From contig JAPOUR010000005.1 of the NCBI GenBank assembly GCA_026708565.1, forward strand, positions 32,273 to 96,272: a DNA stretch of 64,000 bases, written 5' to 3'. Source of the stretch: Candidatus Dadabacteria bacterium. GTDB lineage: Bacteria; Desulfobacterota_D; UBA1144; Nemesobacterales; Mycalebacteriaceae. Position 1 is the first letter of the stretch. Every line of letters starts with the position of its first letter. The translations under genes were made by a program, and so were the position numbers. A model generated the notes under the pieces. That model was given only the letters and a program-made list of their open reading frames with translations. It made no database searches and was not told the origin of the DNA. Of the stretch, positions 7,466-43,288 are shown in pieces.

Positions 7466-7780
7466 TCTTTGAATAAAGAGTATACAGAATTGATCGAAAA
7501 ACTAAAATCGCTTAAAAGATACGAAGGAAAGCGTGGTGAATCTAATCCTACAAGAAAGTTATATAGGGAGCATCTGGAGATGAAAAAAGCCCTCAAAGAT
7601 ACAATGATGAAAGAAGGACTTCACAAAGGTACTGTTAAACACTTTATGTTGGAACAGATTAAAAAAGAATATGGCATGTCTTGTGAGGACATAAAGAAAG
7701 AAAAGAAGAATAATGAATCTACTAAAGATGCTATAATACGTCTCTTCTTATCTCTCACTCAACCCTCTCCAAGTGAATAA
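7466..7780 (+). CDS. Hypothetical Lys-rich small protein (weak HicA-like resemblance)
   Basis: AT-rich. AGGAGG RBS 9 nt before the TTG at 7466. ELIEKLKSL...GLHKGTVKHF loosely resembles HicA, but the GSHH motif is absent. Confidence 0.3.
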   Translation, partial: SLNKEYTELIEKLKSLKRYEGKRGESNPTRKLYREHLEMKKALKDTMMKEGLHKGTVKHFMLEQIKKEYGMSCEDIKKEKKNNESTKDAIIRLFLSLTQPSPSE

Positions 7781-8240
7781 CCTTGTAGTTGATTTTGTAT
7801 TTATAAAAGTCAATGTTAGGCACAACCGACAAAGCTCGTTTGATTTTCTTGTTTGTCTTTGAGGCTACTATTGCTCCCCTGACTTCCTGACCCTTCTTTG
7901 CCAGTTTCTCTTTCACAAACCCCATATACCTTTGGCATTGCCCGATAACCGTATCGGAAGTCCCGCCCCGTTTCAGTTCAATCACAAGAAAGGTCTTTTT
8001 GTCTTTGCTAATGGCAAGGATGTCAATCTTCCCTCCCGTGTCCGTAGGGTATTGCTTGCCGGTTCGCCCTTTCTTGTCTCTGTATATGTCAAAGTTTTCA
8101 GCAAAGACAGTGTGCTTCCAGTTCTTCACAAGGAAGTTTTCCATCTGTGACTCTTTCGGGAAATGGACTCTGTGAGCCTCTGCGGGTGTGGCGGAGAGGA
8201 GACAGAGGAAGAGAACAATGGCTGTCAGTTTTTTCTTCAT
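7755..8240 (-). CDS. NucS/DUF91-like PD-(D/E)xK nuclease with N-terminal signal peptide
   Basis: Signal peptide MKKKLTAIVLFLCLLSATPAEA. GGKIDILAISKDKKTFLVIELKRG...IGQCQRYMGF matches the D...ExK...QxxxY nuclease core. AT-rich. Confidence 0.5.
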   Translation of the reverse strand: MKKKLTAIVLFLCLLSATPAEAHRVHFPKESQMENFLVKNWKHTVFAENFDIYRDKKGRTGKQYPTDTGGKIDILAISKDKKTFLVIELKRGGTSDTVIGQCQRYMGFVKEKLAKKGQEVRGAIVASKTNKKIKRALSVVPNIDFYKYKINYKVIHLERVE

Positions 8241-8250
8241 GATGCAGACC

Positions 8251-8583
8251 CTACCATTCTATTCCATAATTAAGTATCGTAAAAGACTTGTGGTTCTGTT
8301 TCATAACCACATTAATATGAAATATCATTTTTTTTGTCTGTGAATACATTCGCAAACTGCCTTTTATACAAGATTGTCCCTTGCATTCTATCTTTTGATA
8401 CTTTGTATATAAAAGCATATAAGTAATCTGATCTGCTACTTCTTCCAGACTTTCACTATATCTCACAAGCAATTCTGCTTCGAAGCATGCGGGGTAAATA
8501 TAGGTATAGGTGTTATCATAAATAGGATCTTGAACAAGAATAGAGTAGCATGTTTGTCCGTATTTTTCTTTTTCTAAAATCAT
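8251..8583 (-). CDS. Hypothetical protein (AT-rich)
   Basis: ORF only. Lies in the low-GC pocket between the NucS-like gene and the ankyrin gene. Confidence 0.3.
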   Translation of the reverse strand: MILEKEKYGQTCYSILVQDPIYDNTYTYIYPACFEAELLVRYSESLEEVADQITYMLLYTKYQKIECKGQSCIKGSLRMYSQTKKMIFHINVVMKQNHKSFTILNYGIEW

Positions 8584-9467
8584 GGTTGAAGCAACCTTGT
8601 GATTTCGTAAAAATCAGGATGGTCTTTATGCGCCGCTTGCCATGCATCAAAAGCCGTAACTCCGTCGACACTTGCCCGTTTATCTGCTCCCGCTTTCAGC
8701 AATGCCTGTATTGCTTCGGTTTGGCCATGAATTGCCGCAATCATCAGAGCCGTGAGTCCATAATTCTCCCTTGCCTCTATATTAACCCCTGCTTTAAGCA
8801 ATGTCTGTATTGCTTCTATGTGCCCGCCGCCGAACAACGCTGCCATCAGAACCGTTGCGCCTAAATGATTTTTTGCCTCTATATCCGCTCCCGCTTTCAG
8901 CAATACTTGTATTGCTTCGGTTTGGCCATGAAATGCCGCCTGCCTTAGAGCCGTCCCGCCGCTTATACTCTCTCTTGCCTCTATATCCGCTCCCGCTTTC
9001 AGCAATGCCTGTATTGCTTCGGTTTGGCCGCCACCTGTCGCAAGCATTAAAGCCGTCAAATCGCTTTCACTCTCTCTTGCTTCTATATCTGCTCCCGCTT
9101 TCAGCAATGCCTGTATTGCTTCGGTTTGGCCGCCACCTGTCGCAAGCATTAAAGCCGTCAAATCGCTTTCACTCTCTCTTGCTTCTATATCTGCTCCCGC
9201 TTTTAGCAACTCTCTTACTGCTTCTGTCTGCCCGAGGATCGCCGCAATCATCAGAGCCGTCCAGCCATCGTTATCCTTTGCCTCTATGTCCGCACCCGCT
9301 TTTAGTAACTCTCGTATTGCTTTAGAGTTTCCGTCCCTCGCCGCAAACATTAGAGGTGTCCAACCTCTCTCATTCACCTCGGTTTGCGACCCATAAAGAC
9401 CCGCATAGTAAGCCGCACCCATTAAAACGACAACCGCTATGGCAAACCCGTAAAATGCTCTGTTCAT
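8580..9467 (-). CDS. Ankyrin-repeat protein with N-terminal TM/signal anchor
   Basis: About 7 ANK repeats (TALM.AA..G..E.v..LLKAGADIEA). Hydrophobic N-terminus. Confidence 0.8.
   Translation of the reverse strand: MNRAFYGFAIAVVVLMGAAYYAGLYGSQTEVNERGWTPLMFAARDGNSKAIRELLKAGADIEAKDNDGWTALMIAAILGQTEAVRELLKAGADIEARESESDLTALMLATGGGQTEAIQALLKAGADIEARESESDLTALMLATGGGQTEAIQALLKAGADIEARESISGGTALRQAAFHGQTEAIQVLLKAGADIEAKNHLGATVLMAALFGGGHIEAIQTLLKAGVNIEARENYGLTALMIAAIHGQTEAIQALLKAGADKRASVDGVTAFDAWQAAHKDHPDFYEITRLLQP
8995..9198. repeat. Perfect tandem duplication, 2 x 102 bp, inside the ankyrin gene
   Basis: Two identical 102-bp units. Each encodes ARESESDLTALMLATGGGQTEAIQALLKAGADIE. Confidence 0.8.
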
Positions 9468-12963: not shown

Positions 12964-14442
12964 ATGAACCTTGCCCAGCTTACAGCAAACGCCTCTCTGA
13001 TAGCCCCGGAGATTGCGCTGTGCATTGCGGGACTTGTCCTCGCCGTTGCCGCGCCCGTATTGAAAACCGTCTCTGAACAGAGGCGCGGGACGATCTTCTG
13101 CGCCGTTGCGCTTATCGGGTTTGCCATCGCCTTTGTTCTCAACGCGGACAGGTTCGGCGGCGCGGAGAGCGCGTTTTCCGGCACTCTTTACCTTGATGAT
13201 TTCTCCGCTTTTTTCAACTCCATATTTCTTGCAAGCGCGGCGGCGGCGTCCCTTTTTGCCGCCTCTTACATAAGAGAATCCGAGCGGCTTGGAGAGTTTC
13301 TCGCCCTTGTCTCGCTGTGTGTGCCGGGGATGATGCTGATGGCCGAATCGGTTGAGTTCGTGTCGCTTTTCGTTTCGTTTGAAGTGGTTTCAATCTGCGC
13401 CTACGCCCTTGCCGGATTTTCGTCCCGAACCGTTGCCCCCGCCGAGGCGGGGATTAAGTATCTGGTTACGGGAGGGTTTTCCTCCGCCGTTATGCTTCTG
13501 GGCATCGCGCTGCTTTACGGCGGGACGGGAAGTCTGGAATTCGGCGTCATATCGGGCGCGTTTGAAGCCTCGCCGTCAAATCCGATGTTGCTTGCGGGCG
13601 CGGCTCTTGTGTTTACGGGCTTCATATTCAAGGCGGGCGCCGCCCCCCTTCATCAGTGGATTCCCGATGTTTACCACGGCGCGCCCATGCCTGCGACCGC
13701 TTTTATGTCCGTGGGCGTCAAGGTGGCAGCGATTGCGGTTCTGGCAAGGTTTGTCGTGGAAATAGGGTCAGCCGGGCAGTGGGCGCTTCCGGTGATAGTC
13801 AGCGCGGTTGCCGCGGTAACCATGCTTGCCGGAAACATATCGGCCATAGCGCAGAGCAATGTGAAGAGAATGCTCGCATATTCAAGCGTCGCCCATGTGG
13901 GGTATGTTCTGGTCGGTGTCGCCGCCTATTTGTCCGGGGACGACCCGGCGGGGCTTTCCGGCGTTTTCTATTACTCTTACGCCTATGCGGCGGTCAGCCT
14001 CGGCGCGTTCGGGTTGCTGTCCGTTCTTGGAAGAGACGGAAACGAATACCAGACTTTCGGCGACATATCAGGGCTGTGGCGGACAAAACCCGCCGCCGCA
14101 TTGGCTCTTGCGGTGTTTATGTTTGCGCTCGCGGGAGTTCCTCCGACCATAGGTTTTTTTGCAAAATACCGGGTCTTCCTTCCGGCGGCGCAGGAGGGAT
14201 TGCACTTTCTGGTGGTGTTTGCCCTTGTCAACAGCGTGGTCTCCGCCTACTACTATTTGAAGGTTGCGGTGTTCGCGTTTATGAAGCCGGTGTCAAAACA
14301 GCAGACCGCCGGATGGAAAGCGGGGCTCGGAGCGCGCGCGGCGGTCGCCTTATTGTGCGTTGTAACCCTGCTGCTGGGGATTGCGCCGTTTGACACGGCG
14401 GGGCTTGCCGAATCCGCCGCGCGGGCGCTGACTTTACGATGA
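12964..14442 (+). CDS. nuoN: NADH-quinone oxidoreductase subunit N (NuoN / Mrp antiporter-like)
   Basis: 492 aa, 14 TM. Matches the NuoN-type antiporter-like subunit. Confidence 0.8.
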   Translation: MNLAQLTANASLIAPEIALCIAGLVLAVAAPVLKTVSEQRRGTIFCAVALIGFAIAFVLNADRFGGAESAFSGTLYLDDFSAFFNSIFLASAAAASLFAASYIRESERLGEFLALVSLCVPGMMLMAESVEFVSLFVSFEVVSICAYALAGFSSRTVAPAEAGIKYLVTGGFSSAVMLLGIALLYGGTGSLEFGVISGAFEASPSNPMLLAGAALVFTGFIFKAGAAPLHQWIPDVYHGAPMPATAFMSVGVKVAAIAVLARFVVEIGSAGQWALPVIVSAVAAVTMLAGNISAIAQSNVKRMLAYSSVAHVGYVLVGVAAYLSGDDPAGLSGVFYYSYAYAAVSLGAFGLLSVLGRDGNEYQTFGDISGLWRTKPAAALALAVFMFALAGVPPTIGFFAKYRVFLPAAQEGLHFLVVFALVNSVVSAYYYLKVAVFAFMKPVSKQQTAGWKAGLGARAAVALLCVVTLLLGIAPFDTAGLAESAARALTLR

Positions 14443-16661
14443 GCAACAAAAAAGGAGGATTTAAAAAAGAGGCGGCGGCTGTCGGCGTCTTTCTGCTCGG
14501 AGCAATAACGGCGGCGGGGCTTGTTGCGGGCGGCTCGCTTTCGCCGTTCGGCGGAGGCGCGGTCGGATGGGTTGGCAAAACAGTATCGGGGACGCTGTCT
14601 TCCGCATTCGGGGTCGCCTCCCTGCTGATTCCCGCCGGGTGCGCCTACCTGTGCGTCCGCCTTGTATTTTTCAGCGTGAAGGGAAAGGCGCTTCTGAAAG
14701 ACGCCGCCGCCGCCATAGGGCTTCTGGCGTCAACCGCGCTTTTGTCCGGTCTGGCTCTTGAGGGGGTTTTGGTAAACCACCTCACTCAGGACGGCGCGGG
14801 CGGGAAACTGGGACGGGAGATTCTACGCTTCACAGTGGATACGGTTGGTGTGTTCGGCTCTTATGTGGTCGGGCTTTCCGTTGTTTCCGTGTGCCTTGTG
14901 TTTCTTGCAAGAACCAGCCTGCGGACGGTTCTGTCATCAGGTTTTAACGCCGTTGCAAAAACATTGAGCGTGTCTCTGAAAGCCGTCGTTTCCGTTCTTT
15001 TGCGCCTGTCGGAAATGCTGCGGAGCGCGGCAGTGTTTGCCGCCGGTCTGGTGAAAAAGTTCCGCGCAAAAACCCCGCCCTCCCCGCCGGTAATCAAGGA
15101 AGAAAAACAACCCGCGCCCGTTGTCCCCTCCGGCGAAGAAAAGGCGGCGGAAGCCCCGAAACTGGTCATCAAAAAACAGGATAAGAAAAATCCCAAACCG
15201 GCGGAAAAAGACCCCGCCCCCCGGCCTGAAGGGCGCAGTTTTGCCCTTCCTCCCATAAACCTGCTGGAAAGGCCGGAAGGCGGAAAAACGGAGATTGACA
15301 AGGAAAGCGCCTACGGGAGCGCGCGCCTGATTGAGGAAAAACTCCAGAGTTTCGGCGTTTCGGGAAAAGTAACGGAGATCAGGCCCGGCCCCGTTATCAC
15401 CATGTTTGAATACAAGCCCGCCTCCGGGGTCAAGGTGAGCAAGATCGCCTCGCTTGAAGATGACCTTGCGATGAACCTCAGCGCGAGCAGCATAAGAATC
15501 ATATCCCCCATTCCGGGCAGGGATGTGGTGGGCATTGAAGTCCCCAACAACCGGCGGGAGAAGGTATGCCTGAGGGAAATTATAGAAAACCCCGAATTTG
15601 CGGCAAATAAATCGCTTCTTACCATAGCGGTCGGCAAAGACATATCCGGCGCGCCCTATTACACCGACCTTGCCGCCGCCCCTCACCTGATGATAGCGGG
15701 AACGACCGGGTCGGGCAAAAGCGTGCTTCTGAACTCGCTGCTCGCAAGCCTGTTTTACAAAACGGGGCCGGACAGGCTGCGCCTCCTTATGATAGACCCG
15801 AAAATGCTTGAGTTTGCCATTTATGAAGACATCCCCCACCTGCTCCACCCCATTGTTACAGAGCCGAGAAAAGCAATCGCCGCCCTCAAGTGGGCGGTCG
15901 CCGAGATGGAGGGCAGGTACAAGGTTCTTTCCCAAAAAGGCGTGAGAAACATAGATTCATACAACTCCGCAATAGAGCGGGATGAGGGTCCCGGCTCGCC
16001 GCAAATTATGCCCTACATTGTAATTCTGATAGACGAACTTGCGGATTTGATAATGTCCGCCGCGTCCGACACGCGGGACTGCATTATCAGGATAGCGCAG
16101 AAGGCGCGCGCGGCGGGAATACACCTTGTTGTTGCCACTCAGCGCCCGTCCGCGGATGTGGTTTCGGGACTTTTGAAAGCGAACATTCCGGCAAGAATCT
16201 CGTTTCTGGTCTCATCAAAGGTGGACTCAAGGATTATCCTTGACGCTCAGGGAGCGGAAAGTCTGTTAGGCAAGGGAGACATGCTTTATCTCAAGCCCGG
16301 AACCGGCGCGCTGGAGAGAATTCAGGGCGCGCTGATAACGGACGAGGAGCGGGAGAGAATTGTTGATTTTCTCAAATCACAGGGCGAGCCCGCGTTTGAC
16401 AGCGCGGTTGCGGACGCCATCAACAAACCTGAGGGCGAGCAGGGTGATTCCAGCACTGAGGAGCGGGACGAGATGTATGAGCAGGCGCTTGAAATAGTCA
16501 CCGAAGCGGGGCAGGTGTCAATATCAATGCTTCAGCGGCGGCTTAAGATTGGCTACAACCGCGCGGCGACCATTGTTGAACAGATGGAGCGCGAGGGGAT
16601 TGTGGGAGAGCCGCAGGGAGCGGGAAAACCGAGAGAGGTTATTTCGCCGAGCGAGGGGTAA
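14439..16661 (+). CDS. ftsK: DNA translocase FtsK
   Basis: N-terminal TM helices. Pro/Lys-rich linker. Walker A GTTGSGKS. C-terminal gamma winged-helix domain. Confidence 0.9.
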   Translation: MSNKKGGFKKEAAAVGVFLLGAITAAGLVAGGSLSPFGGGAVGWVGKTVSGTLSSAFGVASLLIPAGCAYLCVRLVFFSVKGKALLKDAAAAIGLLASTALLSGLALEGVLVNHLTQDGAGGKLGREILRFTVDTVGVFGSYVVGLSVVSVCLVFLARTSLRTVLSSGFNAVAKTLSVSLKAVVSVLLRLSEMLRSAAVFAAGLVKKFRAKTPPSPPVIKEEKQPAPVVPSGEEKAAEAPKLVIKKQDKKNPKPAEKDPAPRPEGRSFALPPINLLERPEGGKTEIDKESAYGSARLIEEKLQSFGVSGKVTEIRPGPVITMFEYKPASGVKVSKIASLEDDLAMNLSASSIRIISPIPGRDVVGIEVPNNRREKVCLREIIENPEFAANKSLLTIAVGKDISGAPYYTDLAAAPHLMIAGTTGSGKSVLLNSLLASLFYKTGPDRLRLLMIDPKMLEFAIYEDIPHLLHPIVTEPRKAIAALKWAVAEMEGRYKVLSQKGVRNIDSYNSAIERDEGPGSPQIMPYIVILIDELADLIMSAASDTRDCIIRIAQKARAAGIHLVVATQRPSADVVSGLLKANIPARISFLVSSKVDSRIILDAQGAESLLGKGDMLYLKPGTGALERIQGALITDEERERIVDFLKSQGEPAFDSAVADAINKPEGEQGDSSTEERDEMYEQALEIVTEAGQVSISMLQRRLKIGYNRAATIVEQMEREGIVGEPQGAGKPREVISPSEG

Positions 16662-16707
16662 TGTATGTCTTTGTTTCAGTATAAGCCATGTGGTTGACCC
16701 ATGAAAA

Positions 16708-17442
16708 TCAACTAGAACTTCTTTTAAGGTGTTTGCGGATGACATCTTTTACATAGTCTGGCACTTCCTTCTGGGCTTTGGAAACTTCTTTCATGAGAAA
16801 CTCATACTCTTTGACTTCCTCGCCAGACCATAAGATGTCAAGCCTCCGCATGTCACGCATCGCGATATGCTTATAAGATTCTGGGTAGGCCCAGTAGCAC
16901 TGTTGGCATGTCTCAGCCTTCTTGATTGTCCAATTAGCACAATTCTCACAACTCCATGATTTCGCCCTGTTTGCAGACGCGCATAGAAGCATATAGTCAT
17001 CCATATTACTTGAAAGATCACTTTGGTCTCCCACAATTTCAAAAGGGATTCTGTGATCAATTTGCAATTCCCTTGGGGGAAATGATTCAAGGTAAATATT
17101 GCACCGTGCGCCGTGCTTCTCAATCAGTGTATTTTTCATGCTTGAAGAAAACGCCGTACGACCAGAAAGTTGTGCAGACCGGATTTCTGATGGGTCTCCA
17201 AACTTATATGCAGCGATTTTCCTTCCATCCGAACCGATGGCACGGAAAGTTTTAATAGGCACACCTTGTTCTCTCACATCTCTTATAGCACGAGGAGGAT
17301 GGTTGTAGCCATAAATGTCCTTCAATTCCTCGGTTGTTACCTGACCATGTTTGAGGATATGGTCAATAACTGTTTTGGGACGCTTGGCATTAATACTCTT
17401 CAGCAAAGCAAGAAACTTCTTGGGGTAACTTTGCTTAGTCAT
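16708..17442 (-). CDS. HNH endonuclease (putative type II restriction endonuclease)
   Basis: LQIDHRIPFEIVGD...LLCASANRAKS HNH core with flanking CxxC pairs. Co-operonic with the Dam-family MTase. Confidence 0.65.
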   Translation of the reverse strand: MTKQSYPKKFLALLKSINAKRPKTVIDHILKHGQVTTEELKDIYGYNHPPRAIRDVREQGVPIKTFRAIGSDGRKIAAYKFGDPSEIRSAQLSGRTAFSSSMKNTLIEKHGARCNIYLESFPPRELQIDHRIPFEIVGDQSDLSSNMDDYMLLCASANRAKSWSCENCANWTIKKAETCQQCYWAYPESYKHIAMRDMRRLDILWSGEEVKEYEFLMKEVSKAQKEVPDYVKDVIRKHLKRSSS

Positions 17443-18449
17443 GCAAATATAATCTCTTGTTGCTTTCTATTACTAACACACAAAGCGGGGCCTTCATACC
17501 GTAGTCTATTCACCAAAGGATCAGACAAGTACAGGGATTCAATGGTCTGATGGTTTTTGCCCAACAATGTCGCTTGACTGGATCTGCCTGCATAGATTGT
17601 GGTGTGTTGAAGGCGGAGGTGTTTCGGGAGTGGTTTTCCATGCATTCTTTCACCAGTAATACCATCGTAGCTTATGATGTATGAGATGTTTCTTTTGTTC
17701 ATAACCGCAAGTGCATCCACGAAATCATCGTAAGACAAGCCATTGATGTATCTATGGTCCCTTGTAAACGATGTGCCTTGATAGGGTGGGTCCATGTAAA
17801 CCAAATCGTTCTCGCCAGCCCTTTCCACTATCACTTGAAAGTCCATTGCAGATGTGCTGGTTTTTCCAGCCAAAAGTGCTGACACGCCCAATATGTTTTG
17901 TCTCATTGTGTGGGGTTTCATTCCTGAACGCCTGTTATCCGCACTCTGATTGAATTTGCCGTCAGAACTGTATCTGATAGAGCCTTTTACAATCCGTGCC
18001 AATAAGTAAAGCAAGTAGCAAGGTTTGTGTGCGATGTTGAACTCATCCCTCACTTTCAGAAAGTAAGACTTTCTATCTGAATGTTGCTCACTCCACAGTC
18101 TTTCATATTCGTCACACAAGTCTTTTGGTCGCTCTAATATCTCCACCCATAAGTCCATCAGGGGTTTATTCAAATCATTTAGTGAAATTGTTTCCATCAT
18201 TCCGTAAGCGGCAGCGGCAATAGAGATAGCCCCGGCGCCACAAAACGGCTCTATTAAGCATTTGGTATCAGACGGAAAGTAAGGGAGGATGTACTTAGCA
18301 ATGCCTCGCTTGCTTCCCTGATACGGAAATGGGTGTGGTAACTTGCGTAAGTTGCAGTACGGGTCAATCTCTTGTAATTGATACAAGGGTTGATGCGACA
18401 TGTCTTTGCTATTGAGTTCTTTCATGTGTCTTACTTGAAATTGTAACAT
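17439..18449 (-). CDS. Dam-family (D12 class) N6-adenine DNA methyltransferase
   Basis: FPYQGSKRGIAKYILPYFP and EPFCGAGA (SAM-binding). DPPY catalytic motif (VYMDPPYQG). Confidence 0.8.
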   Translation of the reverse strand: MLQFQVRHMKELNSKDMSHQPLYQLQEIDPYCNLRKLPHPFPYQGSKRGIAKYILPYFPSDTKCLIEPFCGAGAISIAAAAYGMMETISLNDLNKPLMDLWVEILERPKDLCDEYERLWSEQHSDRKSYFLKVRDEFNIAHKPCYLLYLLARIVKGSIRYSSDGKFNQSADNRRSGMKPHTMRQNILGVSALLAGKTSTSAMDFQVIVERAGENDLVYMDPPYQGTSFTRDHRYINGLSYDDFVDALAVMNKRNISYIISYDGITGERMHGKPLPKHLRLQHTTIYAGRSSQATLLGKNHQTIESLYLSDPLVNRLRYEGPALCVSNRKQQEIIFA

Positions 18450-18596
18450 AAATGACCTGATACGCTACTGTGGAAAACAGTACAAGGCGATCTGGCAGAT
18501 TCTGGCCTTACCACTTGGGTGTCAATTGAATTCAGTTGATATATTGAGTTTCTACCTTGGTTTCTTGCTTATAATTGTTCAACATAAGGAGATACT
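18450..18596. promoter_or_regulatory. AT-rich divergent promoter region between the MTase and SIR2 genes, with a near-palindrome CAATTGAATTCAGTTG
   Basis: 14/16 palindromic around GAATTC. Strong RBS AAGGAG 8 nt before the ATG at 18597. Confidence 0.3.
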
Positions 18597-21500
18597 ATGC
18601 AATTTGTAAAAGGTGGTCCTGACATTCCAGAACAGTTGCTACAGGCGCACGAAGATGGGCAAGTAGCCTTTTTCTGTGGGGCCGGGATTTCTTACCCAGC
18701 AGGCTTGCCTGGCTTTGCCGACCTAGTGAAACAACTCTATGATAACTTGGTGGGCACACGCAATGAGGTGCAACAATCGGCAATAGAGGCCAAGAAGTTT
18801 GATACTGCGATAGGCTTATTGGAAGCAGATATTGCTGGTGATCGCGGGAAAGTAAGAAGGGAACTGGCAAGTATTCTAACCCCAGACATCAGTGACCCGA
18901 AGAGTGCCGAGAAAGCAACCGCGACTCACGAAGCCCTGTTGACGCTAGGCAGGAACCGCGAGGGACAAATGCGGTTGGTCACTACTAACTTTGACCGTCT
19001 TTTTGAGGAAGTAATCGCCACAAAATCACTGTCGGTCAACCGCTCTCAGGCACCACAGTTGCCAATTCCGAAGAACAGATGGGACAGGCTGGTGTATCTA
19101 CATGGTCTGTTGCCCGATACCAACCCACCCATGCCAAACGATCTGGATAGTCTGGTTGTCTCCAGTGGCGACTTTGGGTTGGCCTATCTTACGGAACGTT
19201 GGGCAGCGCGATTCGTGAGCGAACTGTTTCGCAACTATATTGTATGCTTTGTCGGTTACAGCATCGGCGACCCAGTATTGCGCTATATGATGGACGCTCT
19301 TGCTGCTGACCGTTTGCTCGGTGAGTCGCCACCGGAAATGTTTGCTTTTGGTAGTTACTCCAAAGGCAAGGAAGAGAAGGTCTACAACGAATGGCGGGCC
19401 AAAAATGTTACACCCATTCTCTATCGGGAGCACAATCGTCACTCCTACCTTCACAGAACACTGCGGGATTGGGCCGACAAATACAGAGATGGTGTGGGCG
19501 GGAAAGAAAGCATTGTTGTGCGATATGCAATGACACGTCCATCGAAGAGCACCAAGCAAGATGACTTTGTTGGTCGTATGCTATGGGCACTGAGCGACCA
19601 GACTGGACTCCCAATGAAGCGCTTCGCCGAGTTTAATCCGGTTCCACATCTGGATTGGCTCTTGGAACCTTTTAGTGAAGACCGCTACAAACATGTTGAC
19701 TTGGAGCGCTTTGGTGTTTCTTCTGGAACAGAGGTTGATAACGACCTTAAATTCAGTCTGGTTTCCAGACCATCACCTTACAGTCTGGCACCATGGATGG
19801 TCATCTCTGATACTGGTTCTCTTGGTAGTAAATGGGATAACATTATGCAACACTTGGCACGGTGGTTGGTACGTCATCTTGATGACCCTGCTCTGGTGCT
19901 TTGGTTGGCTAAACAGGGTGGTCAACTGCATAAGGACCTGATCCGGGTGGTAGAACAATGCTTGCACAAACTTGCTAAGTATGAGCAAGACGGTGATACG
20001 ACCACGATAGACCGTATTCGTAACAATGCACCCAAGGCAATTCCCGGGCCACACATGCGAACGCTATGGCGGCTTCTGCTTGCTGGGCGCGTTAAATCGC
20101 GTAAATCGCAGACACAAAGCAATGATTTCTACCAATGGCATAAGCGCTTTGAGCGAGACGGACTCACCACAACTTTACGGTTTGAACTACGTGAGATACT
20201 TACACCACGAGTATCTATAAGTGAACCACTTTTCCGTTTGCCAACAGGTGATAGCGAAAATCAAAAGCCAGAGTGTCTAAGCGAGCTTGTTAGTTGGGAG
20301 ATTGTGCTTTCGGCAGGCCCTATCCATTCCAAATTGAATGACTTGAATGATAACGAGCGCGAGCGTTGGACTGCGGCCTTACCGGAATTGCTGACCGATT
20401 TTAGCGCCTTATTGCGCGATGCCTTGGATTTGATGCGTGAACTTGGTGGCGCGGACAACAAGAGCGACCCGTCTTTTGAGTATCAACCTTCAATCAGTAA
20501 GCACCGGCAGAATAGGGGATTTCACGAATGGACTTCTTTGATAGACCTAGCTCGGGACGCATGGTTGGCCACAGCCGAGCAATCACCGCAACATGCATTA
20601 CTCGTGGCAGAGGCATGGTGGCAAACGCCCTATCCTCTTTTTAAGCGTCTCGCATTTTTTGCCGCTACACAGGGCGGTGTAGTAACCCATCGCCGCGCAC
20701 TTGACTGGTTGCTCGCAGATGAAAAGTGGTGGTTGTGGTCAGATAAAACCCGGCGTGAATCCATACGACTGCTGGCTGTCTTGGCTCCACAAATTGATGA
20801 ACCGATGTTGCGAGAACTTGAGCAGGCGGTCCTTGCCGGGCCACCCCTCAACATGTTCAGAGACAATATGACCCCGGAAGACAGGGACATTGTTGACAAA
20901 AAAATCTGGCTACGACTGGCAGAGATGGTTCAATCTGGTGCTGGTTTGAGCTCCACAGGCCAAGAACGTCTGAATGCGCTCTCTGTCCAGCACCAACTTG
21001 CTGAAGATGAACGTGATGAATTTCCAGACCGGATGGAGAGCGGTGTTTGGGGTGGACGAAAGCCTTGGCTACAGTTTGAACCGATACCGAGTGGCGACCT
21101 AGATGGGTTGGTAAACTACTTGACAGAAAACCACCATCCTGCCGAAGGAAGAGAGGATGACTGGCAAGAACTTTGCAAAAATGATTTTGAGAACACAGCA
21201 CAAGCCTTACACCATTTTGCCAGAAAAAACATTTGGCTTGACCAACGCTGGGGGGACGCTTTACGGGTCTGGTCATCAGATGAAAAAGTGCGCGAGACTT
21301 TATGGCGATCCGTCGCACCCGTATTAACCACAGCTCCCGATGACTTTCTACAGAACAAGGATGTCACCTACGGAGTTGGTTGGTGGTTGAAAGCCATTGC
21401 CAAAACCTTTGAGGGCCATGAAGAAGAGTTTCTAATCCTCACGCGCCGTATCCTGAGTCTGAAATATCAGGATAATGCCAAGACCGACGACCCTGTCAAC

Positions 21501-22439
21501 CTCGCCATCAATCATCCAGTAGGCTATGTAACGCAGGCGTTGTTAGATTGGTGGTATCGGCAGACCTTGGAAGATAAACAAGGTCTGCCGGAGAAACTCA
21601 AACCCATATTCACTGAACTTTGTGATACCCAAACCAGTCAGTTTCGACATGGCCGTGTTTTGTTAGCGCACCATGTTATCAATTTGTTTCGCGTAGACCG
21701 CGAGTGGACAATACAGCACTTGTTGCCGTTATTTAACTGGCAACAGTCAGAAACAGAAGCACGGGCAGTCTGGGAAGGTTTCCTGTGGTCACCCCGCCTA
21801 TACTACCCTCTGATGGAGGAACTCAAGTCGGACTTTCTCAATACTGCAACCCACTATGAGGATCTGGAAAACCACGGTAAGCAGTATTATGCGCGGATTC
21901 TCACCTTTGCGGCTCTTGACCAGAGTGGCAGTAGCACATTCACTCAAACTGAACTTAAGCGAGCTACTGACGCGCTCTCTACAGACGGGTTATGTGAAGT
22001 AGCCCAAGCACTCGTGATAGAGTTGGAAAGCGCAAGTGAGCAACGCACTAACTATTGGACAAACCGAGTCGTCCCATACCTGAAATCCATTTGGCCAAAA
22101 GACAAGGACAAAATTACTCCCGACATTTCCACAAGCCTCGGCAGTCTATGTGTCTCGGCGTCGGAAAAGTTTCCGGATGCGCTTGACCTTCTACGTCACT
22201 GGCTTCAACCGTCAGAAGGACACAGTTTTCTAGTCCATAAACTTTGTGATTCTGACTTGTGTAAAGAGTTTCCAGAGGAATCTCTGGAATTCTTGAGACT
22301 GGTCATCAACGATAATAGTGAATGGCCGCCCTATGAACTTAAAGACTGTCTTGAGGATATAAAAACTAATAATCCTGCATTGGAAAAAGATCTTCGGTAT
22401 GAAAATTTAATGACTTATCTGCGTCAGCACCCCATATAG
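18597..22439 (+). CDS. SIR2-like (SIR2_2) domain protein, 1280 aa, with a ~980-aa helical C-terminal region; DSR-like candidate anti-phage NADase
   Basis: N-terminus: FFCGAGISYPAGLPGFADLV, RLVTTNFDRLFEE, LVYLHGLL...LVVSSGDF. No P-loop. Lies in the low-GC island next to the R-M pair. Confidence 0.7.
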   Translation: MQFVKGGPDIPEQLLQAHEDGQVAFFCGAGISYPAGLPGFADLVKQLYDNLVGTRNEVQQSAIEAKKFDTAIGLLEADIAGDRGKVRRELASILTPDISDPKSAEKATATHEALLTLGRNREGQMRLVTTNFDRLFEEVIATKSLSVNRSQAPQLPIPKNRWDRLVYLHGLLPDTNPPMPNDLDSLVVSSGDFGLAYLTERWAARFVSELFRNYIVCFVGYSIGDPVLRYMMDALAADRLLGESPPEMFAFGSYSKGKEEKVYNEWRAKNVTPILYREHNRHSYLHRTLRDWADKYRDGVGGKESIVVRYAMTRPSKSTKQDDFVGRMLWALSDQTGLPMKRFAEFNPVPHLDWLLEPFSEDRYKHVDLERFGVSSGTEVDNDLKFSLVSRPSPYSLAPWMVISDTGSLGSKWDNIMQHLARWLVRHLDDPALVLWLAKQGGQLHKDLIRVVEQCLHKLAKYEQDGDTTTIDRIRNNAPKAIPGPHMRTLWRLLLAGRVKSRKSQTQSNDFYQWHKRFERDGLTTTLRFELREILTPRVSISEPLFRLPTGDSENQKPECLSELVSWEIVLSAGPIHSKLNDLNDNERERWTAALPELLTDFSALLRDALDLMRELGGADNKSDPSFEYQPSISKHRQNRGFHEWTSLIDLARDAWLATAEQSPQHALLVAEAWWQTPYPLFKRLAFFAATQGGVVTHRRALDWLLADEKWWLWSDKTRRESIRLLAVLAPQIDEPMLRELEQAVLAGPPLNMFRDNMTPEDRDIVDKKIWLRLAEMVQSGAGLSSTGQERLNALSVQHQLAEDERDEFPDRMESGVWGGRKPWLQFEPIPSGDLDGLVNYLTENHHPAEGREDDWQELCKNDFENTAQALHHFARKNIWLDQRWGDALRVWSSDEKVRETLWRSVAPVLTTAPDDFLQNKDVTYGVGWWLKAIAKTFEGHEEEFLILTRRILSLKYQDNAKTDDPVNLAINHPVGYVTQALLDWWYRQTLEDKQGLPEKLKPIFTELCDTQTSQFRHGRVLLAHHVINLFRVDREWTIQHLLPLFNWQQSETEARAVWEGFLWSPRLYYPLMEELKSDFLNTATHYEDLENHGKQYYARILTFAALDQSGSSTFTQTELKRATDALSTDGLCEVAQALVIELESASEQRTNYWTNRVVPYLKSIWPKDKDKITPDISTSLGSLCVSASEKFPDALDLLRHWLQPSEGHSFLVHKLCDSDLCKEFPEESLEFLRLVINDNSEWPPYELKDCLEDIKTNNPALEKDLRYENLMTYLRQHPI

Positions 22440-22477
22440 AGAGTAGAAATCAGTTACCAGAACTCTTGAATAGACAA

Positions 22478-23686
22478 TCACCTGTCAACCTCTCCGAGCA
22501 CTATGTCTATGCTTCCCAGAGCCGCCACCACATCCCCCACAAAAGCGCCTTCAAGCATCGGCGCGAGCGCCTGAAGATTGACAAATGACGGGCCCCGGAC
22601 GCGCATGCGGTAGGGCTTTTTCGTGCCATCGCTCACAAGGTAGTATCCAAGTTCACCCTTGGGGTTCTCAACCGCGCAATACGCCTCGCCCGCGGGCGGG
22701 GAAAAGCCTTCGTAAACCAAAACAAAGTGGCGTATCAGCGACTCCATCTTTGTATAAACCTGCTCTTTTTCGGGAAGAACAATCTCCGGCAAGTCGGCAA
22801 TGTAGCGGCCGTCCGGCAGGTTGTCTATCGCCTGCTTTATAATGCGGACGCTCTGCCTACACTCCTCCATCCGGCAGAGGTAACGGGAATAGACGTCCCC
22901 GTCTTCCCCCACCACAACATCAAAATCGTAATTCTCATACCCCAAATACGGCTTCGCCTTCCGCACATCAAACTCCACACCGCTTCCCCGAAGAGTGGGA
23001 CCCGACAAACCGAGATCAATCGCGTCCTCCGCGCTTATCTGCGCCACGCCCTTCGTTCTTTGAAGCCATATACCGTTTTTTGTCAGAAGTTTATCAACCT
23101 CATCAAGGGTTTGAGGGAAATCTTTAACAAAGTTGTTCACAGCATCGGCAAACCCTTCCGGCAGGTCTTTGGGGAGTCCTCCGACCCTCGGATAGGAGGT
23201 TGTCATTCTCGCTCCGCAAACCATCTCAAGGATGTCATAAATCCTTTCCCGCTCTTTGAAGCAATACATAAAGGAACTGAACGCGCCCAAATCAAGCGCG
23301 CCCGTCCCTATGCCGACCATGTGGGACTCAATCCTGCCGAGTTCAAACATTATGACCTCTGCCGCTTTTGCCCTCTCCGGGATTTCGTCTTCTATACCGA
23401 GCAACTTCTCAACCGCGAGAACAAATCCTATGTTGTTGCAGATTGCCGCAAGGTAGTCCATCCTGTCCGTGTAGGGGAGGCACTGCTGGTAGGTGATGTT
23501 TTCGCACAGTTTTTCTATGCCTCTGTGCAGGTATCCGATGTGAGGCACAACATTTTTTATGACCTCGCCGTCAAGCCCCAGCACTATGCGCAAAACCCCG
23601 TGCGTGGCGGGATGCTGGGGGCCCATGTTCAGAATCATTTCGGCGTCGCCATTGCCGCCGTCCGTAACAAACTGAACCTTTTCCAT
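22478..23686 (-). CDS. nuoD: NADH-quinone oxidoreductase subunit D
   Basis: MEKVQFV...LNMGPQHPATHGVLR. Start at MEKVQ, 12 nt after the nuoC stop. Confidence 0.9.
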   Translation of the reverse strand: MEKVQFVTDGGNGDAEMILNMGPQHPATHGVLRIVLGLDGEVIKNVVPHIGYLHRGIEKLCENITYQQCLPYTDRMDYLAAICNNIGFVLAVEKLLGIEDEIPERAKAAEVIMFELGRIESHMVGIGTGALDLGAFSSFMYCFKERERIYDILEMVCGARMTTSYPRVGGLPKDLPEGFADAVNNFVKDFPQTLDEVDKLLTKNGIWLQRTKGVAQISAEDAIDLGLSGPTLRGSGVEFDVRKAKPYLGYENYDFDVVVGEDGDVYSRYLCRMEECRQSVRIIKQAIDNLPDGRYIADLPEIVLPEKEQVYTKMESLIRHFVLVYEGFSPPAGEAYCAVENPKGELGYYLVSDGTKKPYRMRVRGPSFVNLQALAPMLEGAFVGDVVAALGSIDIVLGEVDR

Positions 23687-23699
23687 CAAAAACCCCTCA

Positions 23700-24212
23700 T
23701 CAGAAGTTTCCCTCTTTGAGCGCCTTTTCAAACGAGCGCTTTGCGGGTTCTCTGTCTCTGACGTCAAAATCCTTGCGGAGGGGAAAGCCCTCAAAATCTT
23801 CGGGCAGCAGGATTCTTCTCATGTCCGGGTGTCCGTTAAAAACGATTCCGAACATATCAAACACCTCTCTTTCAAGCCAGTCCGCCCCCTTCCACACGGA
23901 GGAAACCGTTTCCAGCCGCAACATGTCCGCATCCAGCGGAACTTTGAGAAAAACCCTCATCTCCTCGTTATACCGGGAGTCAAAGCGGACGGTGTTATAG
24001 ATAACTTCAAACCGCGCCCCGGCTCTTTCGCCCAGATAGTCCACGGCGGTGATGTCTGAAAGGTAGGCAAAGCCGCGCTCCAGTTTAAGGTTGAGGCACG
24101 CCTCTTTAACGGCTTCCCTCCGTATCACAAAAAAAGGCTCGCCCCCCCTCATCTCTCCGCTTGAGAGCGAGAACGGGCCGAGTGTGTTCTTAACTGACTC
24201 AAGAACGCTCAT
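23700..24212 (-). CDS. nuoC: NADH-quinone oxidoreductase subunit C
   Basis: 30-kDa subunit motifs ([17 protein letters not shown]). Confidence 0.85.
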
Positions 24213-24694
24213 TTCAGCGGAGCGCCTTCGTTTTCTATCTTTGCCTGTATCTTCATAACCGCATCTATCAGCGCTTCGGGGCGCGGGGGACAGCCGCCCA
24301 CATAAACATCAACGGGCAGAAACTCGTCTATTCCCTGAACCACCGCATAACTGTCAAACGGGCCGCCGCCGCAAGTGCATGAGCCCATCGCTATAACCCA
24401 CTTGGGCTCCGGCATCTGGTCGTAAATTCTCCGGCACACCGACGCCATTTTGTAGGTTATAGTGCCCGAAACTATCATGAGGTCCGCCTGACGCGGCGAG
24501 AATCTTGCGACCTCCGCCCCGAAACGCGCCATGTCATAGCGGGAGGCGAACGCTCCCATCATCTCTATCGCGCAACATGCCGTGCCCAGCGGCATGGGCC
24601 AGAGGCTGTTTTTTCTGGACCAGTTCACAAACTCGGAAAGTTTGGTTGAAACAAAGCCGTCTCCGCCTAAAATGCCGCCGCCGCTTACCGCCAA
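24209..24694 (-). CDS. nuoB: NADH-quinone oxidoreductase subunit B
   Basis: Fe-S ligand Cys motifs ([27 protein letters not shown]). Confidence 0.9.
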
Positions 24695-25044
24695 TCCAGC
24701 ACTCCTTTGAACAGAACATACAGATAGCCCGCCACTATGACGGCGAGAAACGCCCCAAGTTCAACCGCCGCCACCGCGCCGAGTTCGCGGGCGACCATTG
24801 ACCACGCAATCAGAAAAACCGCCTCTATGTCAAACAGGATAAAAAGCGCGCCGATGATGTAGTAGTTCACCGGAAACTTCCCGGCGGCTTCGCCAATCGG
24901 CGTTATGCCCGATTCGTAGGGGGAGGATTTCTCAGTATTCGGTTTGTCTTTTCCGAGGTAAACGGAAAAAAAAAGCAGGACAGCCGCAAGTCCCGCCGTC
25001 AGAACCCAGACAATAACCACCGGAGCGTAGGCGTCGCCGTCCAT
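24685..25044 (-). CDS. nuoA: NADH-quinone oxidoreductase subunit A (start may extend to 25155)
   Basis: YESGI.P.G...F...YY and [12 protein letters not shown] motifs. Internal Met gives the typical ~119 aa. Confidence 0.7.
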
Positions 25045-25211
25045 TACGGCAACAAGGTTAAGGGACGGGCGGGGATTGTCAAGAAGTGGGCGGGCGGTTA
25101 CGCCCCACCCGTTTTGAATGGCGCTTTGAGACAAGCGGAGTGAAACAGTGAACACTTGACCTGAAACCCTGTCAAAAAAAACCTCTCATTCCGGTATAAT
25201 CCCCCCGCCAA

Positions 25212-36482: not shown

Positions 36483-37223
36483 ATGTTGCAGAAACTGACT
36501 GGCTACTATAAACGCAAAGGGATATTATCAACCTCTTTCACTTGTAAACACGAAGAAATCTGCAAAGGAGATTGTAAAAAGTTCACGGGGCCAAAATCGG
36601 CTTTTGTGAGTAGCGGGTATGTACGAAACGAACTCCCTAGGTTACTGTTTCTATCTTTGGATTCTGGCAAGGGAAAACCTGATGACAGAGAAAGACTTCC
36701 TTCCGCAGTAAGAAAACAAGAAGAAGTAGAAAGAGACATTAACTCATTGCACAAAGGCAGGCATTGGTATAGAACCCACGAACTTGCGTGGATTATTTTC
36801 AGAAAGTTCAACCGCGAACTGGAGTTATCTCAAGCAAAGCATTTTTTTGCTCACGCAAACTCTGCAAAGTGTTGCCTAAATAAGAAGCATAAGAGAAAAG
36901 CGGATAAGCGGTTGTTTGATAACTGTAGGGAATATATGGACGGGGAGTTGAAAATTCTTGCTCCCGACATACTGGTTACTCAGGGCAATGAAGCAGAACA
37001 GGCGGTTCTCCCACTCATAGAGAAGAAGAAACAGATTGACAGGTTCGCTTCAGAGTCCGTTTTGCACGGAAGGCGCATTTTCTGGCTTCATACTTGGCAT
37101 CCGAGTAATTATGGGAAGTTTTACAAGCAAAAAGAAAAATGGGATTTTTATGCTGAAAAAATCCACTCATTCATTTCAAACTTACAAACAACTCAGGATT
37201 CAAATACAAAGGAGAAATTCAAA
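36483..37223 (+). CDS. Uracil-DNA-glycosylase-superfamily-like protein, AT-rich, no in-frame stop
   Basis: Layout LFLSLDSG...NSAKCC...NCREY...ILVTQGNEAEQ...WLHTWHPS resembles UDG family 4/5. GC drops sharply here. The frame runs without a stop into the next gene. Confidence 0.4.
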
Positions 37224-38309
37224 ATGACCACCAAAAAACTCATTAACATCAACGACTTCCACCGAGAAGCTAAAGAAAAACTTCCGCAAATGTTTTACGA
37301 CTATTACGCCTCCGGCGCGCACGATGAACTCACCCTTTCAGACAACAGCGCGGCGTATTCCCGCATACGTCTCCGCTACAGGGTGATGGTGGATGTGTCC
37401 GACCGCGATATGTCCGTTGAGATTCTGGGGCAGCGGTGTTCAATGCCCATACTGGTCGCTCCGACTGCGTTTCACGGGCTCGCGTCTCCTCAGGCGGAGA
37501 TTGCCACCGTCCGCGCCGCAAGCGAGGCGCAAACGCTTATGATACTCAGCACCCTGTCAAACACCGCCCTTGAAGATGTGAAGAAAGAGGCGGAAGTCCC
37601 GCTTTTCTTCCAACTGTATGTTTACCGCGACAGAAGCGCCACCGCCGAACTCGTGAAAAGAGCGGAACAAGCGGGCTACAAGGCGATTGTTGTTACGGTT
37701 GACGCCCCTATTCTCGGAACTCGCGAGCGCGATGTGCGCAACGACTTCCGCCTGCCCGAAGGGCTGACAATCAAAAACATGACCGCCGCGCAACTTGAAA
37801 AGATGAGCGAAGACACCGGCTCCGGACTCGGCAACTACTTTGCCTCCTCCATAGACCCCTCCCTTTCATGGAAAGACATTGAATGGCTCAAAGGCATAAC
37901 GGAACTTCCCGTTCTGGTAAAAGGCGTGGTTCATCCCGAAGACGCAAGAATTGCCCTGAAAAGCGGCGCGAGCGGGATTGTGGTCTCAAACCACGGCGGA
38001 CGCCAGCTTGACACAAGCCCGGCAACCATAGACGCCCTGCCCGACATTGCCGAAGCGGTGGACGGCGGCGGGGCGGTGCTCGTTGACGGCGGCGTGAGGC
38101 GGGGAACTGATGTTTTCAAGGCGCTTGCCCTCGGCGCGGACGCCGTTCTGGTGGGAAGACCTATTCTGTGGGGGCTCGCGGCGGACGGGCAAAACGGCGC
38201 GCGGCAGGTTCTTGAAATCCTCAGGGCGGAGTTTGACAAGGCAATGATGCTCTGCGGATTCCGCTCCGCCGCCGAGATAAGGGAAAAGGGAAAACAGATA
38301 CTGTTTTGA
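37224..38309 (+). CDS. FMN-dependent alpha-hydroxy-acid dehydrogenase/oxidase (L-lactate/glycolate oxidase family)
   Basis: Strong RBS AAGGAG before the ATG at 37224. TIM-barrel FMN motifs (SNHGGRQLD, VDGGVRRGTDV). Confidence 0.8.
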   Translation: MTTKKLININDFHREAKEKLPQMFYDYYASGAHDELTLSDNSAAYSRIRLRYRVMVDVSDRDMSVEILGQRCSMPILVAPTAFHGLASPQAEIATVRAASEAQTLMILSTLSNTALEDVKKEAEVPLFFQLYVYRDRSATAELVKRAEQAGYKAIVVTVDAPILGTRERDVRNDFRLPEGLTIKNMTAAQLEKMSEDTGSGLGNYFASSIDPSLSWKDIEWLKGITELPVLVKGVVHPEDARIALKSGASGIVVSNHGGRQLDTSPATIDALPDIAEAVDGGGAVLVDGGVRRGTDVFKALALGADAVLVGRPILWGLAADGQNGARQVLEILRAEFDKAMMLCGFRSAAEIREKGKQILF

Positions 38310-42538: not shown

Positions 42539-43288
42539 CTATTTCTTCTTCAACAACTGCTGAATCCTCTGTCTTGCTCGTTGTTGACCCATTCTAAGAG
42601 CCTTGTGAACCTCATCTTTATTTTCCCAATTATAAATTCGTCCAGATCTACCGGCTAACCCATAAACGGTGTAACCTTTGATGTCTCGCTCTCGCACATC
42701 AGCACCATTGGCAATAAAAGTAACTATAACATCTGGATTTGGTTCATAAGGGTTAGTTATTGCCTCCATCAGTGGCGTTTTTCCTGCATCATCTTTTGCA
42801 TCCACATACGCCCCTGCTTCAAGAAGTATAATGATAGTTTCGGGCAACACTTTGTGGGAAGTAATGCCCGCATAATGCAAAGGCGTACCACCATATACAT
42901 CCCTTGCTTTGACATCCGCACCACTGTCAATTAAGGACTGGATAACTTGAGGATTAGGATTGGCAATACCTTCCATTAATGCCGTTGAAGCGTCCGAATA
43001 CTGTCCCTTGGTCTTGGCGTTGACCTCTACACCTTTCTTGACAAGGAATTTCACAACATCGGGATAGGGGGTATACTTTGCTGCGTAGAACAAGGCAGTC
43101 TTCCCATCTCTATCTTTCGCCTTTACTTTCGCCCCTCCCTTTATGGCTTTCTTAATATCTTCAAGCGTTGCGGTTTCCATAAACTGATAGTCCAGCAACT
43201 TATCTTTCTTTGTTGCTTCCGCAAGTGATGAAAGCCCAAAGAGGACAATTAGGGCAATGGCAAGTAGTCTTTTCATAGCAAACCACAC
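42539..43288 (-). CDS. Ankyrin-repeat protein with signal peptide
   Basis: Signal peptide MKRLLAIALIVLFGLSSLA. About 5 ANK repeats. AT-rich. Confidence 0.75.
   Translation of the reverse strand: MWFAMKRLLAIALIVLFGLSSLAEATKKDKLLDYQFMETATLEDIKKAIKGGAKVKAKDRDGKTALFYAAKYTPYPDVVKFLVKKGVEVNAKTKGQYSDASTALMEGIANPNPQVIQSLIDSGADVKARDVYGGTPLHYAGITSHKVLPETIIILLEAGAYVDAKDDAGKTPLMEAITNPYEPNPDVIVTFIANGADVRERDIKGYTVYGLAGRSGRIYNWENKDEVHKALRMGQQRARQRIQQLLKKK

Follow-up and report, generated by a model that had tools for sequence, protein, structure and literature searches.

We are highly confident that the open reading frame (ORF) at positions 18597–22439 (+ strand) of a 64,000-nucleotide stretch of a Candidatus Dadabacteria (Thermodesulfobacteriota) metagenome-assembled genome (MAG) is a bona fide, full-length Dsr1, a member of a described single-protein anti-phage family, that was acquired horizontally with or next to a restriction-modification (R-M) cassette and for which sensor-triggered NAD+ depletion is proposed. 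The stretch (assembly GCA_026708565.1, contig JAPOUR010000005.1, positions 32,273–96,272) was analyzed at its full length and is referred to as the window. Judged by its sequence, the protein belongs to an already described family and is not of a new kind, and Dsr1 is hereby documented in Candidatus Dadabacteria. The database entry MCY4046737.1, which is 100% identical to the window protein and named 'MAG: SIR2 family protein [Candidatus Dadabacteria bacterium]', can be relabelled as Dsr1 with confidence.

Family membership and domain architecture

Profile searches placed the 1280-amino acid (aa) protein in the Dsr1 family from end to end. The NCBIfam equivalog model NF041818 ('anti-phage defense-associated sirtuin Dsr1') matched with 1805.2 bits against a cutoff of 1400, aligning aa 1–1276 to positions 1–1263 of its 1263, and the PADLOC Dsr1 model PDLC02183 scored 1549 bits with profile positions 1–1273 of 1275 covered. 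The annotated Dsr1 of enterotoxigenic Escherichia coli (ETEC) H10407 (WP_001159678.1) had the same two best models and was collinear with the window protein (1–1275 on 1–1280) at 48% identity and 63% positives. Among 5.8 billion database proteins, the next relatives were 61–65% identical over their full length, and many of these, from Dokdonella, Stenotrophomonas, Pseudomonas, Parvibaculum and Desulfobulbus, were annotated as Dsr1. Apart from MCY4046737.1, no sequence in this database was more than 65% identical, and the window Dsr1 formed a singleton in 90%-identity clustering. In an alignment of 22 Dsr1 sequences, it retained 384 of the 413 positions (93%) that were invariant in the other 21, and thus showed no sign of decay.

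An earlier note on this DNA had suggested a single-gene defense-associated sirtuin NADase of the DSR1/DSR2 type and had raised a new variant as a possibility if the C-terminal region were unrelated to the DSR1/DSR2 sensors. The first suggestion agreed with the full-length Dsr1 models, the 48% identity to E. coli Dsr1 and the conserved Asn and His residues, all of which point to a predicted NADase of this kind. As to type, the DSR1 half of the label held and the DSR2 half was dropped, since neither Dsr2 models nor DSR2 chains or folds were matched by the window protein. The new variant was not borne out, because the C-terminal ~980 aa are homologous to the Dsr1 sensor: a query with aa 301–1280 found 2859 matching 50%-identity clusters, of which 803 reached E ≤ 1e-30, where the sensor-only matches were nearly all proteins of ~1250 aa aligned at about residues 296–1260, and the top 150 matches of the sensor-only representative search were all Dsr1-like. 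Since the whole protein, including this region, matched the Dsr1 models end to end, it is not a new variant.

The gene and the parts of its product are as follows.
18586–18591, + strand: Shine-Dalgarno sequence AAGGAG, 5 nt before the dsr1 ATG, as read from the sequence
18597–22439, + strand: dsr1 coding sequence, ATG at 18597, stop codon at 22437–22439, 1280 aa plus stop
18597–19466, + strand: N-terminal SIR2 (SIR2_2) predicted NADase effector domain, aa 1–290, with PF13289 at aa 127–274
aa 28–32: putative GAGIS NAD-binding loop, invariant in 22 Dsr1 sequences
18987–18989, + strand: codon of the candidate catalytic residue N131, invariant in 22 Dsr1 sequences
19101–19103, + strand: codon of the candidate catalytic residue H169, invariant in 22 Dsr1 sequences
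19467–19835, + strand: conserved linker or middle region, aa 291–413, with 60% identity to E. coli Dsr1 and many invariant residues
19836–22436, + strand: predicted C-terminal alpha-solenoid sensor (~870 aa), aa ~414–1280, from an AlphaFold2 (AF2) model and Dsr1 homology

The SIR2_2 signature that had been read in the N-terminal part was recovered by a hidden Markov model search with Pfam. PF13289 was the sole Pfam family found (E = 2e-22; score of 80 bits, cutoff 24.5), and the quoted motifs GAGIS, TTNFD, YLHG and SSGDF were located at aa 28, 129, 167 and 189, respectively. This region was 59% identical to E. coli Dsr1. In an alignment with KomC, a SIR2 NADase of solved structure (E = 2.5e-6), N131 fell on N107 and H169 on H146, the latter being the residue changed in PDB entry 9xvc, 'KomC(H146N)'. 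The PADLOC ThsA model also matched the window protein (1.4e-8). The canonical SIR2 family (PF02146) had no match in the protein at E up to 1, and human SIRT3 chains were reached at E ~0.7 over 39 residues only.

We regard as next to negligible the prospect that the gene encodes a housekeeping sirtuin-type protein deacetylase or ADP-ribosyltransferase and not a defense NADase. The SIR2 superfamily does include deacylases, and some SIR2 NADases have been labelled 'NAD-dependent protein deacetylase' by PDB depositors, but SIR2_2 was the only family matched at E up to 1, the Dsr1 equivalog match was full-length, the closest relative lacks the gene at its syntenic locus, and homologues of the gene lie in defense or mobile contexts (see below).

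For the remainder of the protein, a long helical region with no P-loop had been expected, and this is what was found. The AF2 model of aa 291–1280 was entirely alpha-helical, with a mean predicted local distance difference test score (pLDDT) of 73.7 that exceeded 85 over the last ~450 residues, and a low-confidence break at aa ~801–828 split the sensor model into two helical blocks. No Walker A motif (P-loop) was present in the window protein, and no nucleoside triphosphatase (NTPase) family of Pfam matched it at E up to 1. The linker, which had a pLDDT below 50 in both predictions (residues 1–123 of the C-terminal model and aa 280–430 of the N-terminal model), probably packs against the SIR2 domain and the sensor. 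Identity of the sensor to that of E. coli Dsr1 was 49%, 34% and 48% by thirds and lowest for aa 701–1000.

The resemblance to E. coli Dsr1 therefore extends to overall size (1280 and 1275 aa) and to the order of a SIR2_2 domain, a conserved linker and an ~870-aa helical sensor, as well as to the single-gene organization, the defense or mobile contexts and the conserved N131 and H169. By analogy, the protein is also built like DSR2 of Bacillus subtilis, a large single protein that the phage tail tube activates and DSAD1 inhibits and that joins an N-terminal SIR2 NADase to a C-terminal alpha-solenoid sensor, depleting NAD+ on infection by sensing a phage protein. The all-helical solenoid of the model, with its break near aa 801–828, may likewise recall Avs7: the Dsr1 sensor has been reported to be homologous to the helical-repeat sensor of Avs7, a STAND NTPase antiviral receptor, the shared architecture being bilobed and sharply bent, with both recognizing the major capsid protein (PMC12803255). 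Unlike Avs7, the window protein has SIR2 as its effector, not a nuclease or another Avs7 effector, and no STAND NTPase. A sensor-only tblastn search of plasmids returned mostly SIR2-family proteins and a few unnamed ones, with no STAND NTPase. The signature motifs GAGxS, TTNxD and xHG are shared with KomC and Thoeris ThsA, but these are short proteins (264–480 aa) that have no ~900-aa solenoid sensor and whose control lies with partner proteins or with a SLOG domain binding a signalling nucleotide.

The strong ribosome-binding site and low GC content claimed for the gene were both present, as AAGGAG 5 nt before the ATG and as a GC content at third codon positions (GC3) of 0.49. A perfect TATAAT hexamer lies upstream at 18570–18575, and we infer only from its sequence that it might act as the -10 element of dsr1; a consensus promoter scan of the dsr1 region gave a number of sites no higher than in shuffles or by chance. 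The terminator scan 3' of dsr1 found no hairpin (z = -0.13).

A defense islet between ftsK and nuoD

The dsr1 gene and a neighboring R-M pair together occupy a low-GC islet, the features of which are listed here with the genes that border it.
14439–16661, + strand: ftsK
16662–22477: low-GC defense islet of 5.8 kb (R-M pair and dsr1), between the stop codons of the convergent ftsK and nuoD
16708–17442, - strand: putative type II restriction endonuclease, 244 aa, winged-helix and nuclease (PADLOC REase_II PDLC03566, 187.6 bits; Pfam HTH_39)
17439–18449, - strand: Dam-family (D12 class) N6-adenine DNA methyltransferase (Pfam MethyltransfD12, 5.9e-34; PADLOC MTase_II PDLC03341, 280 bits)
22478–23686, - strand: nuoD

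An island interrupting housekeeping synteny, as the earlier note had put it, was confirmed by comparison with the closest relative (L004, in which FtsK is 67% and NuoD 87% identical). Where the window carries the 5.8-kb insertion, L004 has a gap of 19 bp between ftsK and nuoD (L004:12227-12245), and the surrounding block of otsAB, an ahpC-like gene, nuoN and ftsK on one side and nuoD-C-B-A, GT2 and pdxA on the other is kept. The GC content of the islet was 0.469 against 0.545 in the remaining window, and the GC3 of its three genes (16708–22439) was 0.43–0.49 against 0.63–0.67 in ftsK, nuoN and nuoB/C/D. At the islet borders (16662 and 22477), no flanking direct repeats, tRNA or integrase were found. 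The locus shows clearly how an islet of type II R-M and Dsr1 can sit between convergent housekeeping genes with no visible mobility gene.

The insertion is not an artifact of assembly. A chimera was rejected on the basis that an independent assembly from another sample had the same junctions, with 99.86% identity over 23.5 kb (34 nucleotide differences); the Dsr1 protein was 100% identical in the assemblies from the two ENA samples (ERZ27276908 and ERZ23500915). The same observations bear on whether dsr1 is an inactive passenger or a decaying relic of horizontal transfer that has lost its defense function, which we judge very improbable. Its foreign composition and lack of mobility genes would suit a relic, as would its singleton status at 90% identity and the fact that dsr1 was not seen at the ftsK-nuoD locus in any of the tabulated relatives (L004–L036). 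However, the 3.8-kb ORF is intact and has a strong Shine-Dalgarno sequence, the family-invariant residues are kept at 384 of 413 positions, including the catalytic Asn and His candidates, and the protein is unchanged between the two samples despite the nucleotide differences around it.

The R-M pair that had been noticed beside dsr1 was matched by both PADLOC models listed above. Against the dam subfamily model TIGR00571, the methyltransferase scored 111.6 bits, slightly below the cutoff of 114.85. The nuclease gene overlaps the stop codon of the methyltransferase gene by 4 bp, and the NCBI name of a protein identical to the 244-aa nuclease is 'HNH endonuclease'. The methyltransferase gene is transcribed divergently from dsr1 across a spacer of 147 bp. 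In two unrelated genomes, this pair of methyltransferase and nuclease genes, again overlapping by 4 bp, was found among housekeeping genes without dsr1, and this recurrence indicates an independent type II R-M module.

Homologues of dsr1 were found in settings of defense and mobility, namely type I R-M, BREX, integrase, plasmid and prophage, and not consistently in a core housekeeping context. In E. coli ETEC H10407 (L003:6577-11810), dsr1 directly follows a tyrosine integrase gene beside three tRNA-Leu genes and prophage remnants, and 90 of the 5426 complete E. coli genomes carry the gene. In Stenotrophomonas and Dokdonella (L086:2657-11783 and L088:2639-11783), it starts 1 nt past the stop codon of hsdS in an hsdR-hsdM-hsdS operon, and in Desulfobulbus (L084:1-13804) it lies within a BREX cluster, flanked by its BrxC/PglY-like and PglZ genes. 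Full-length copies were present on 14 plasmids, and one more in a record of an Stx2c-converting phage or prophage; on the Pantoea, Nitrosococcus and Shewanella plasmids, the gene had no defense neighbor. The window gene thus differs from that of E. coli both in its host, a Candidatus Dadabacteria MAG as opposed to Proteobacteria, and in adjoining a type II R-M pair where the E. coli gene adjoins an integrase and prophage. The neighbors differed in all nine contexts sampled, which included the window, E. coli, Desulfobulbus, Stenotrophomonas, Dokdonella and the three plasmids just named, and this absence of a conserved partner gene fits a self-sufficient single-gene system. Embedding of Dsr1 in R-M or BREX loci is recurrent, but not obligatory.

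That dsr1 and the adjacent R-M genes form one functionally dependent composite, in which, for example, Dsr1 would be a back-up requiring the R-M system or the reverse, is improbable in our view. The tight spacing after hsdS, the position between BREX genes, the 147-bp distance to the R-M pair in the window and the low-GC signature common to all three genes speak for such a composite. On the other hand, the partners vary between type II R-M, type I R-M, BREX, integrase or prophage and none at all, the methyltransferase-nuclease cassette recurs without dsr1, the two units in the window are divergently transcribed, and published experiments on DSR1 used a cloned SIR2-domain protein on its own (10.1101/2021.12.14.472415; PMC12803255). 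We retain the reading of dsr1 as a defense gene in its own right, acquired with or next to the cassette.

The locus itself was also compared across related MAGs. Most of the Dadabacteria and Thermodesulfobacteriota relatives (L005–L032) have a putative LolA-like gene, so labelled solely because of its sequence and its location behind ftsK, and a gene for a small secreted protein between ftsK and nuoD, where the window lineage and L004 have neither. Larger and different inserts were seen at this position in L013 and L026, that of L026 including a 447-aa ORF on the minus strand. The NADH dehydrogenase genes are split: nuoN (12964–14442, + strand) overlaps ftsK by 4 bp, and nuoA-B-C-D (22478–25155) lies on the opposite strand, converging on ftsK. 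This split arrangement (window positions 12964–16661 and 22478–25155) is kept across related MAGs. The ftsK-nuoD junction was considered as a defense hotspot and rejected as such, given that the gap in more distant Dadabacteria holds the conserved LolA-like gene and small secreted protein.

Proposed mechanism and phage trigger

The proposed mechanism of the window Dsr1 follows that of its relatives. In the uninfected cell, the N-terminal SIR2 NADase would be held inactive by the remainder of the protein. Upon infection, the ~870-aa C-terminal alpha-solenoid sensor would bind a phage protein, which for E. coli Dsr1 (EcDsr1) is reported to be the major capsid protein, and this binding would release or activate the SIR2 domain to hydrolyze NAD+ at the conserved N131/H169 site. 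The ensuing fall in NAD+ would block phage replication. Autoinhibition and allosteric release are carried over purely by analogy with DSR2 and may or may not apply in this form. Of these steps, the nature of the trigger is the least certain, given that the sensor shares 34–49% identity with that of E. coli.

The published work on the family supports parts of this scheme. According to later papers, DSR1 was defined as a single-gene system by Gao et al. (2020). A DSR1 expressed in B. subtilis protected against phi29 and lowered NAD+ (10.1101/2021.12.14.472415), and phages overcome DSR1 through NARP1 and NARP3, pathways that reconstitute NAD+ (10.1101/2024.02.11.579819; PMC13464706). In a co-expression screen, the unique activator of EcDsr1 toxicity was a phage major capsid protein, and the toxicity was lost when the NADase domain was disrupted (PMC12803255 / 10.64898/2026.01.04.697583).

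Several points weigh against reading the window protein as a fully working Dsr1 of this kind. Its overall identity to E. coli Dsr1 is 48%, falling to 34% for aa 701–1000, and its trigger specificity may differ. Protection against phage, the depletion of NAD+ and the trigger by capsid are taken from other Dsr1 proteins and would apply to the window protein by analogy. Sequence and profile searches of the PDB returned no Dsr1 structure, with KomC and weak ThsA and SIRT3 matches as the only results, all of them for the SIR2 part; the sensor had no match. The AF2 model of aa 1–430, built from a 37-sequence alignment of ~73% identity, had a mean pLDDT of 42.2, probably because this alignment was too shallow and too similar, and was rejected for comparisons of fold; the active-site assignment is accordingly a prediction from aligned residues. 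The family was called 'poorly characterized' in a 2026 paper (PMC13464706), and the capsid trigger is a preprint result obtained with the EcDsr1 WP_029488749.1 (PMC12803255 / 10.64898/2026.01.04.697583), which may or may not belong to the 418-member 90% cluster of the aligned WP_001159678.1. Finally, in the only physiological study of DSR1, NAD+ was depleted transiently, with no collapse of the culture (10.1101/2021.12.14.472415). For this reason, abortive infection is not established for DSR1, and the abortive-infection label that the earlier note had attached to the system was set aside.

A Dsr1 of the same family and NADase output that senses another phage protein, or another capsid fold, than EcDsr1 is an appreciable, if minor, possibility. 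The low identity in the middle third of the sensor (aa 701–1000) points in this direction, and EcDsr1 protects against few of the tested Drexlerviridae (PMC12803255), while the DSR1 tested in B. subtilis acted on phi29, a very different phage (10.1101/2021.12.14.472415); the host, moreover, is a Dadabacteria MAG. Against it, the preprint groups the Dsr1 sensors in a single clade and makes a case for a recognition mechanism shared by the Avs7 and Dsr1 sensors (PMC12803255), HK97-fold capsids are near-universal in tailed phages, and the window protein keeps 93% of the positions invariant in other Dsr1 sequences. As a more general proposition, that the divergent sensor might recognize a phage component other than a Drexlerviridae-type major capsid protein, or that the recurrent R-M and BREX placement reflects functional coupling, seems rather doubtful to us; if true, altered specificity or such coupling would extend a known system modestly and not amount to a new kind. 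With the reading as an ordinary Dsr1 preferred, the finding matters little beyond annotation and opens no new question, the family being called automatically by standard pipelines (PGAP, PADLOC). Because the family is still called poorly characterized and has no solved structure, a divergent orthologue like the window protein, with its 48% identity to EcDsr1, could nevertheless serve comparative structural or trigger-specificity work.

Other features of the window

Across the window (1–64000), the six lowest observed/expected (O/E) ratios among the 256 tetramers all belonged to palindromes: TCGA at 0.07 (7 observed, 105 expected), AGCT at 0.16, CTAG at 0.17, GTAC at 0.19, GATC at 0.28 (55 observed, 194 expected) and GGCC at 0.36, with a median of 1.02 for non-palindromes. 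The same depletion of 4-bp palindromes was seen in L004 (TCGA 0 of 39 expected), and the more distant Dadabacteria L010 and L011 did not have it. Such avoidance suggests long exposure of the lineage to several 4-cutter restriction systems. The islet was less depleted than the window as a whole (GATC O/E of 0.49), which fits a recent arrival.

A 608-aa ORF at 36483–38309 (+ strand), in a stretch of lower GC content (0.47), had a weak uracil-DNA-glycosylase-superfamily match at aa 116–222 (1.3e-7) and a strong FMN-dependent dehydrogenase domain at aa 263–601 (1.7e-137); if real, this would be an unusual fusion. Two further patches of low GC content (0.43–0.45) were found, the first at 7755–9467 (- strand) with three ORFs and the second with one.
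7755–8240, - strand: 160-aa PD-(D/E)XK-like nuclease
8251–8583, - strand: 110-aa unassigned ORF
8580–9467, - strand: 294-aa ankyrin-repeat protein
42539–43288, - strand: 248-aa ankyrin-repeat protein, in the second patch

Ankyrin-repeat proteins are typical of host-associated bacteria such as sponge symbionts.

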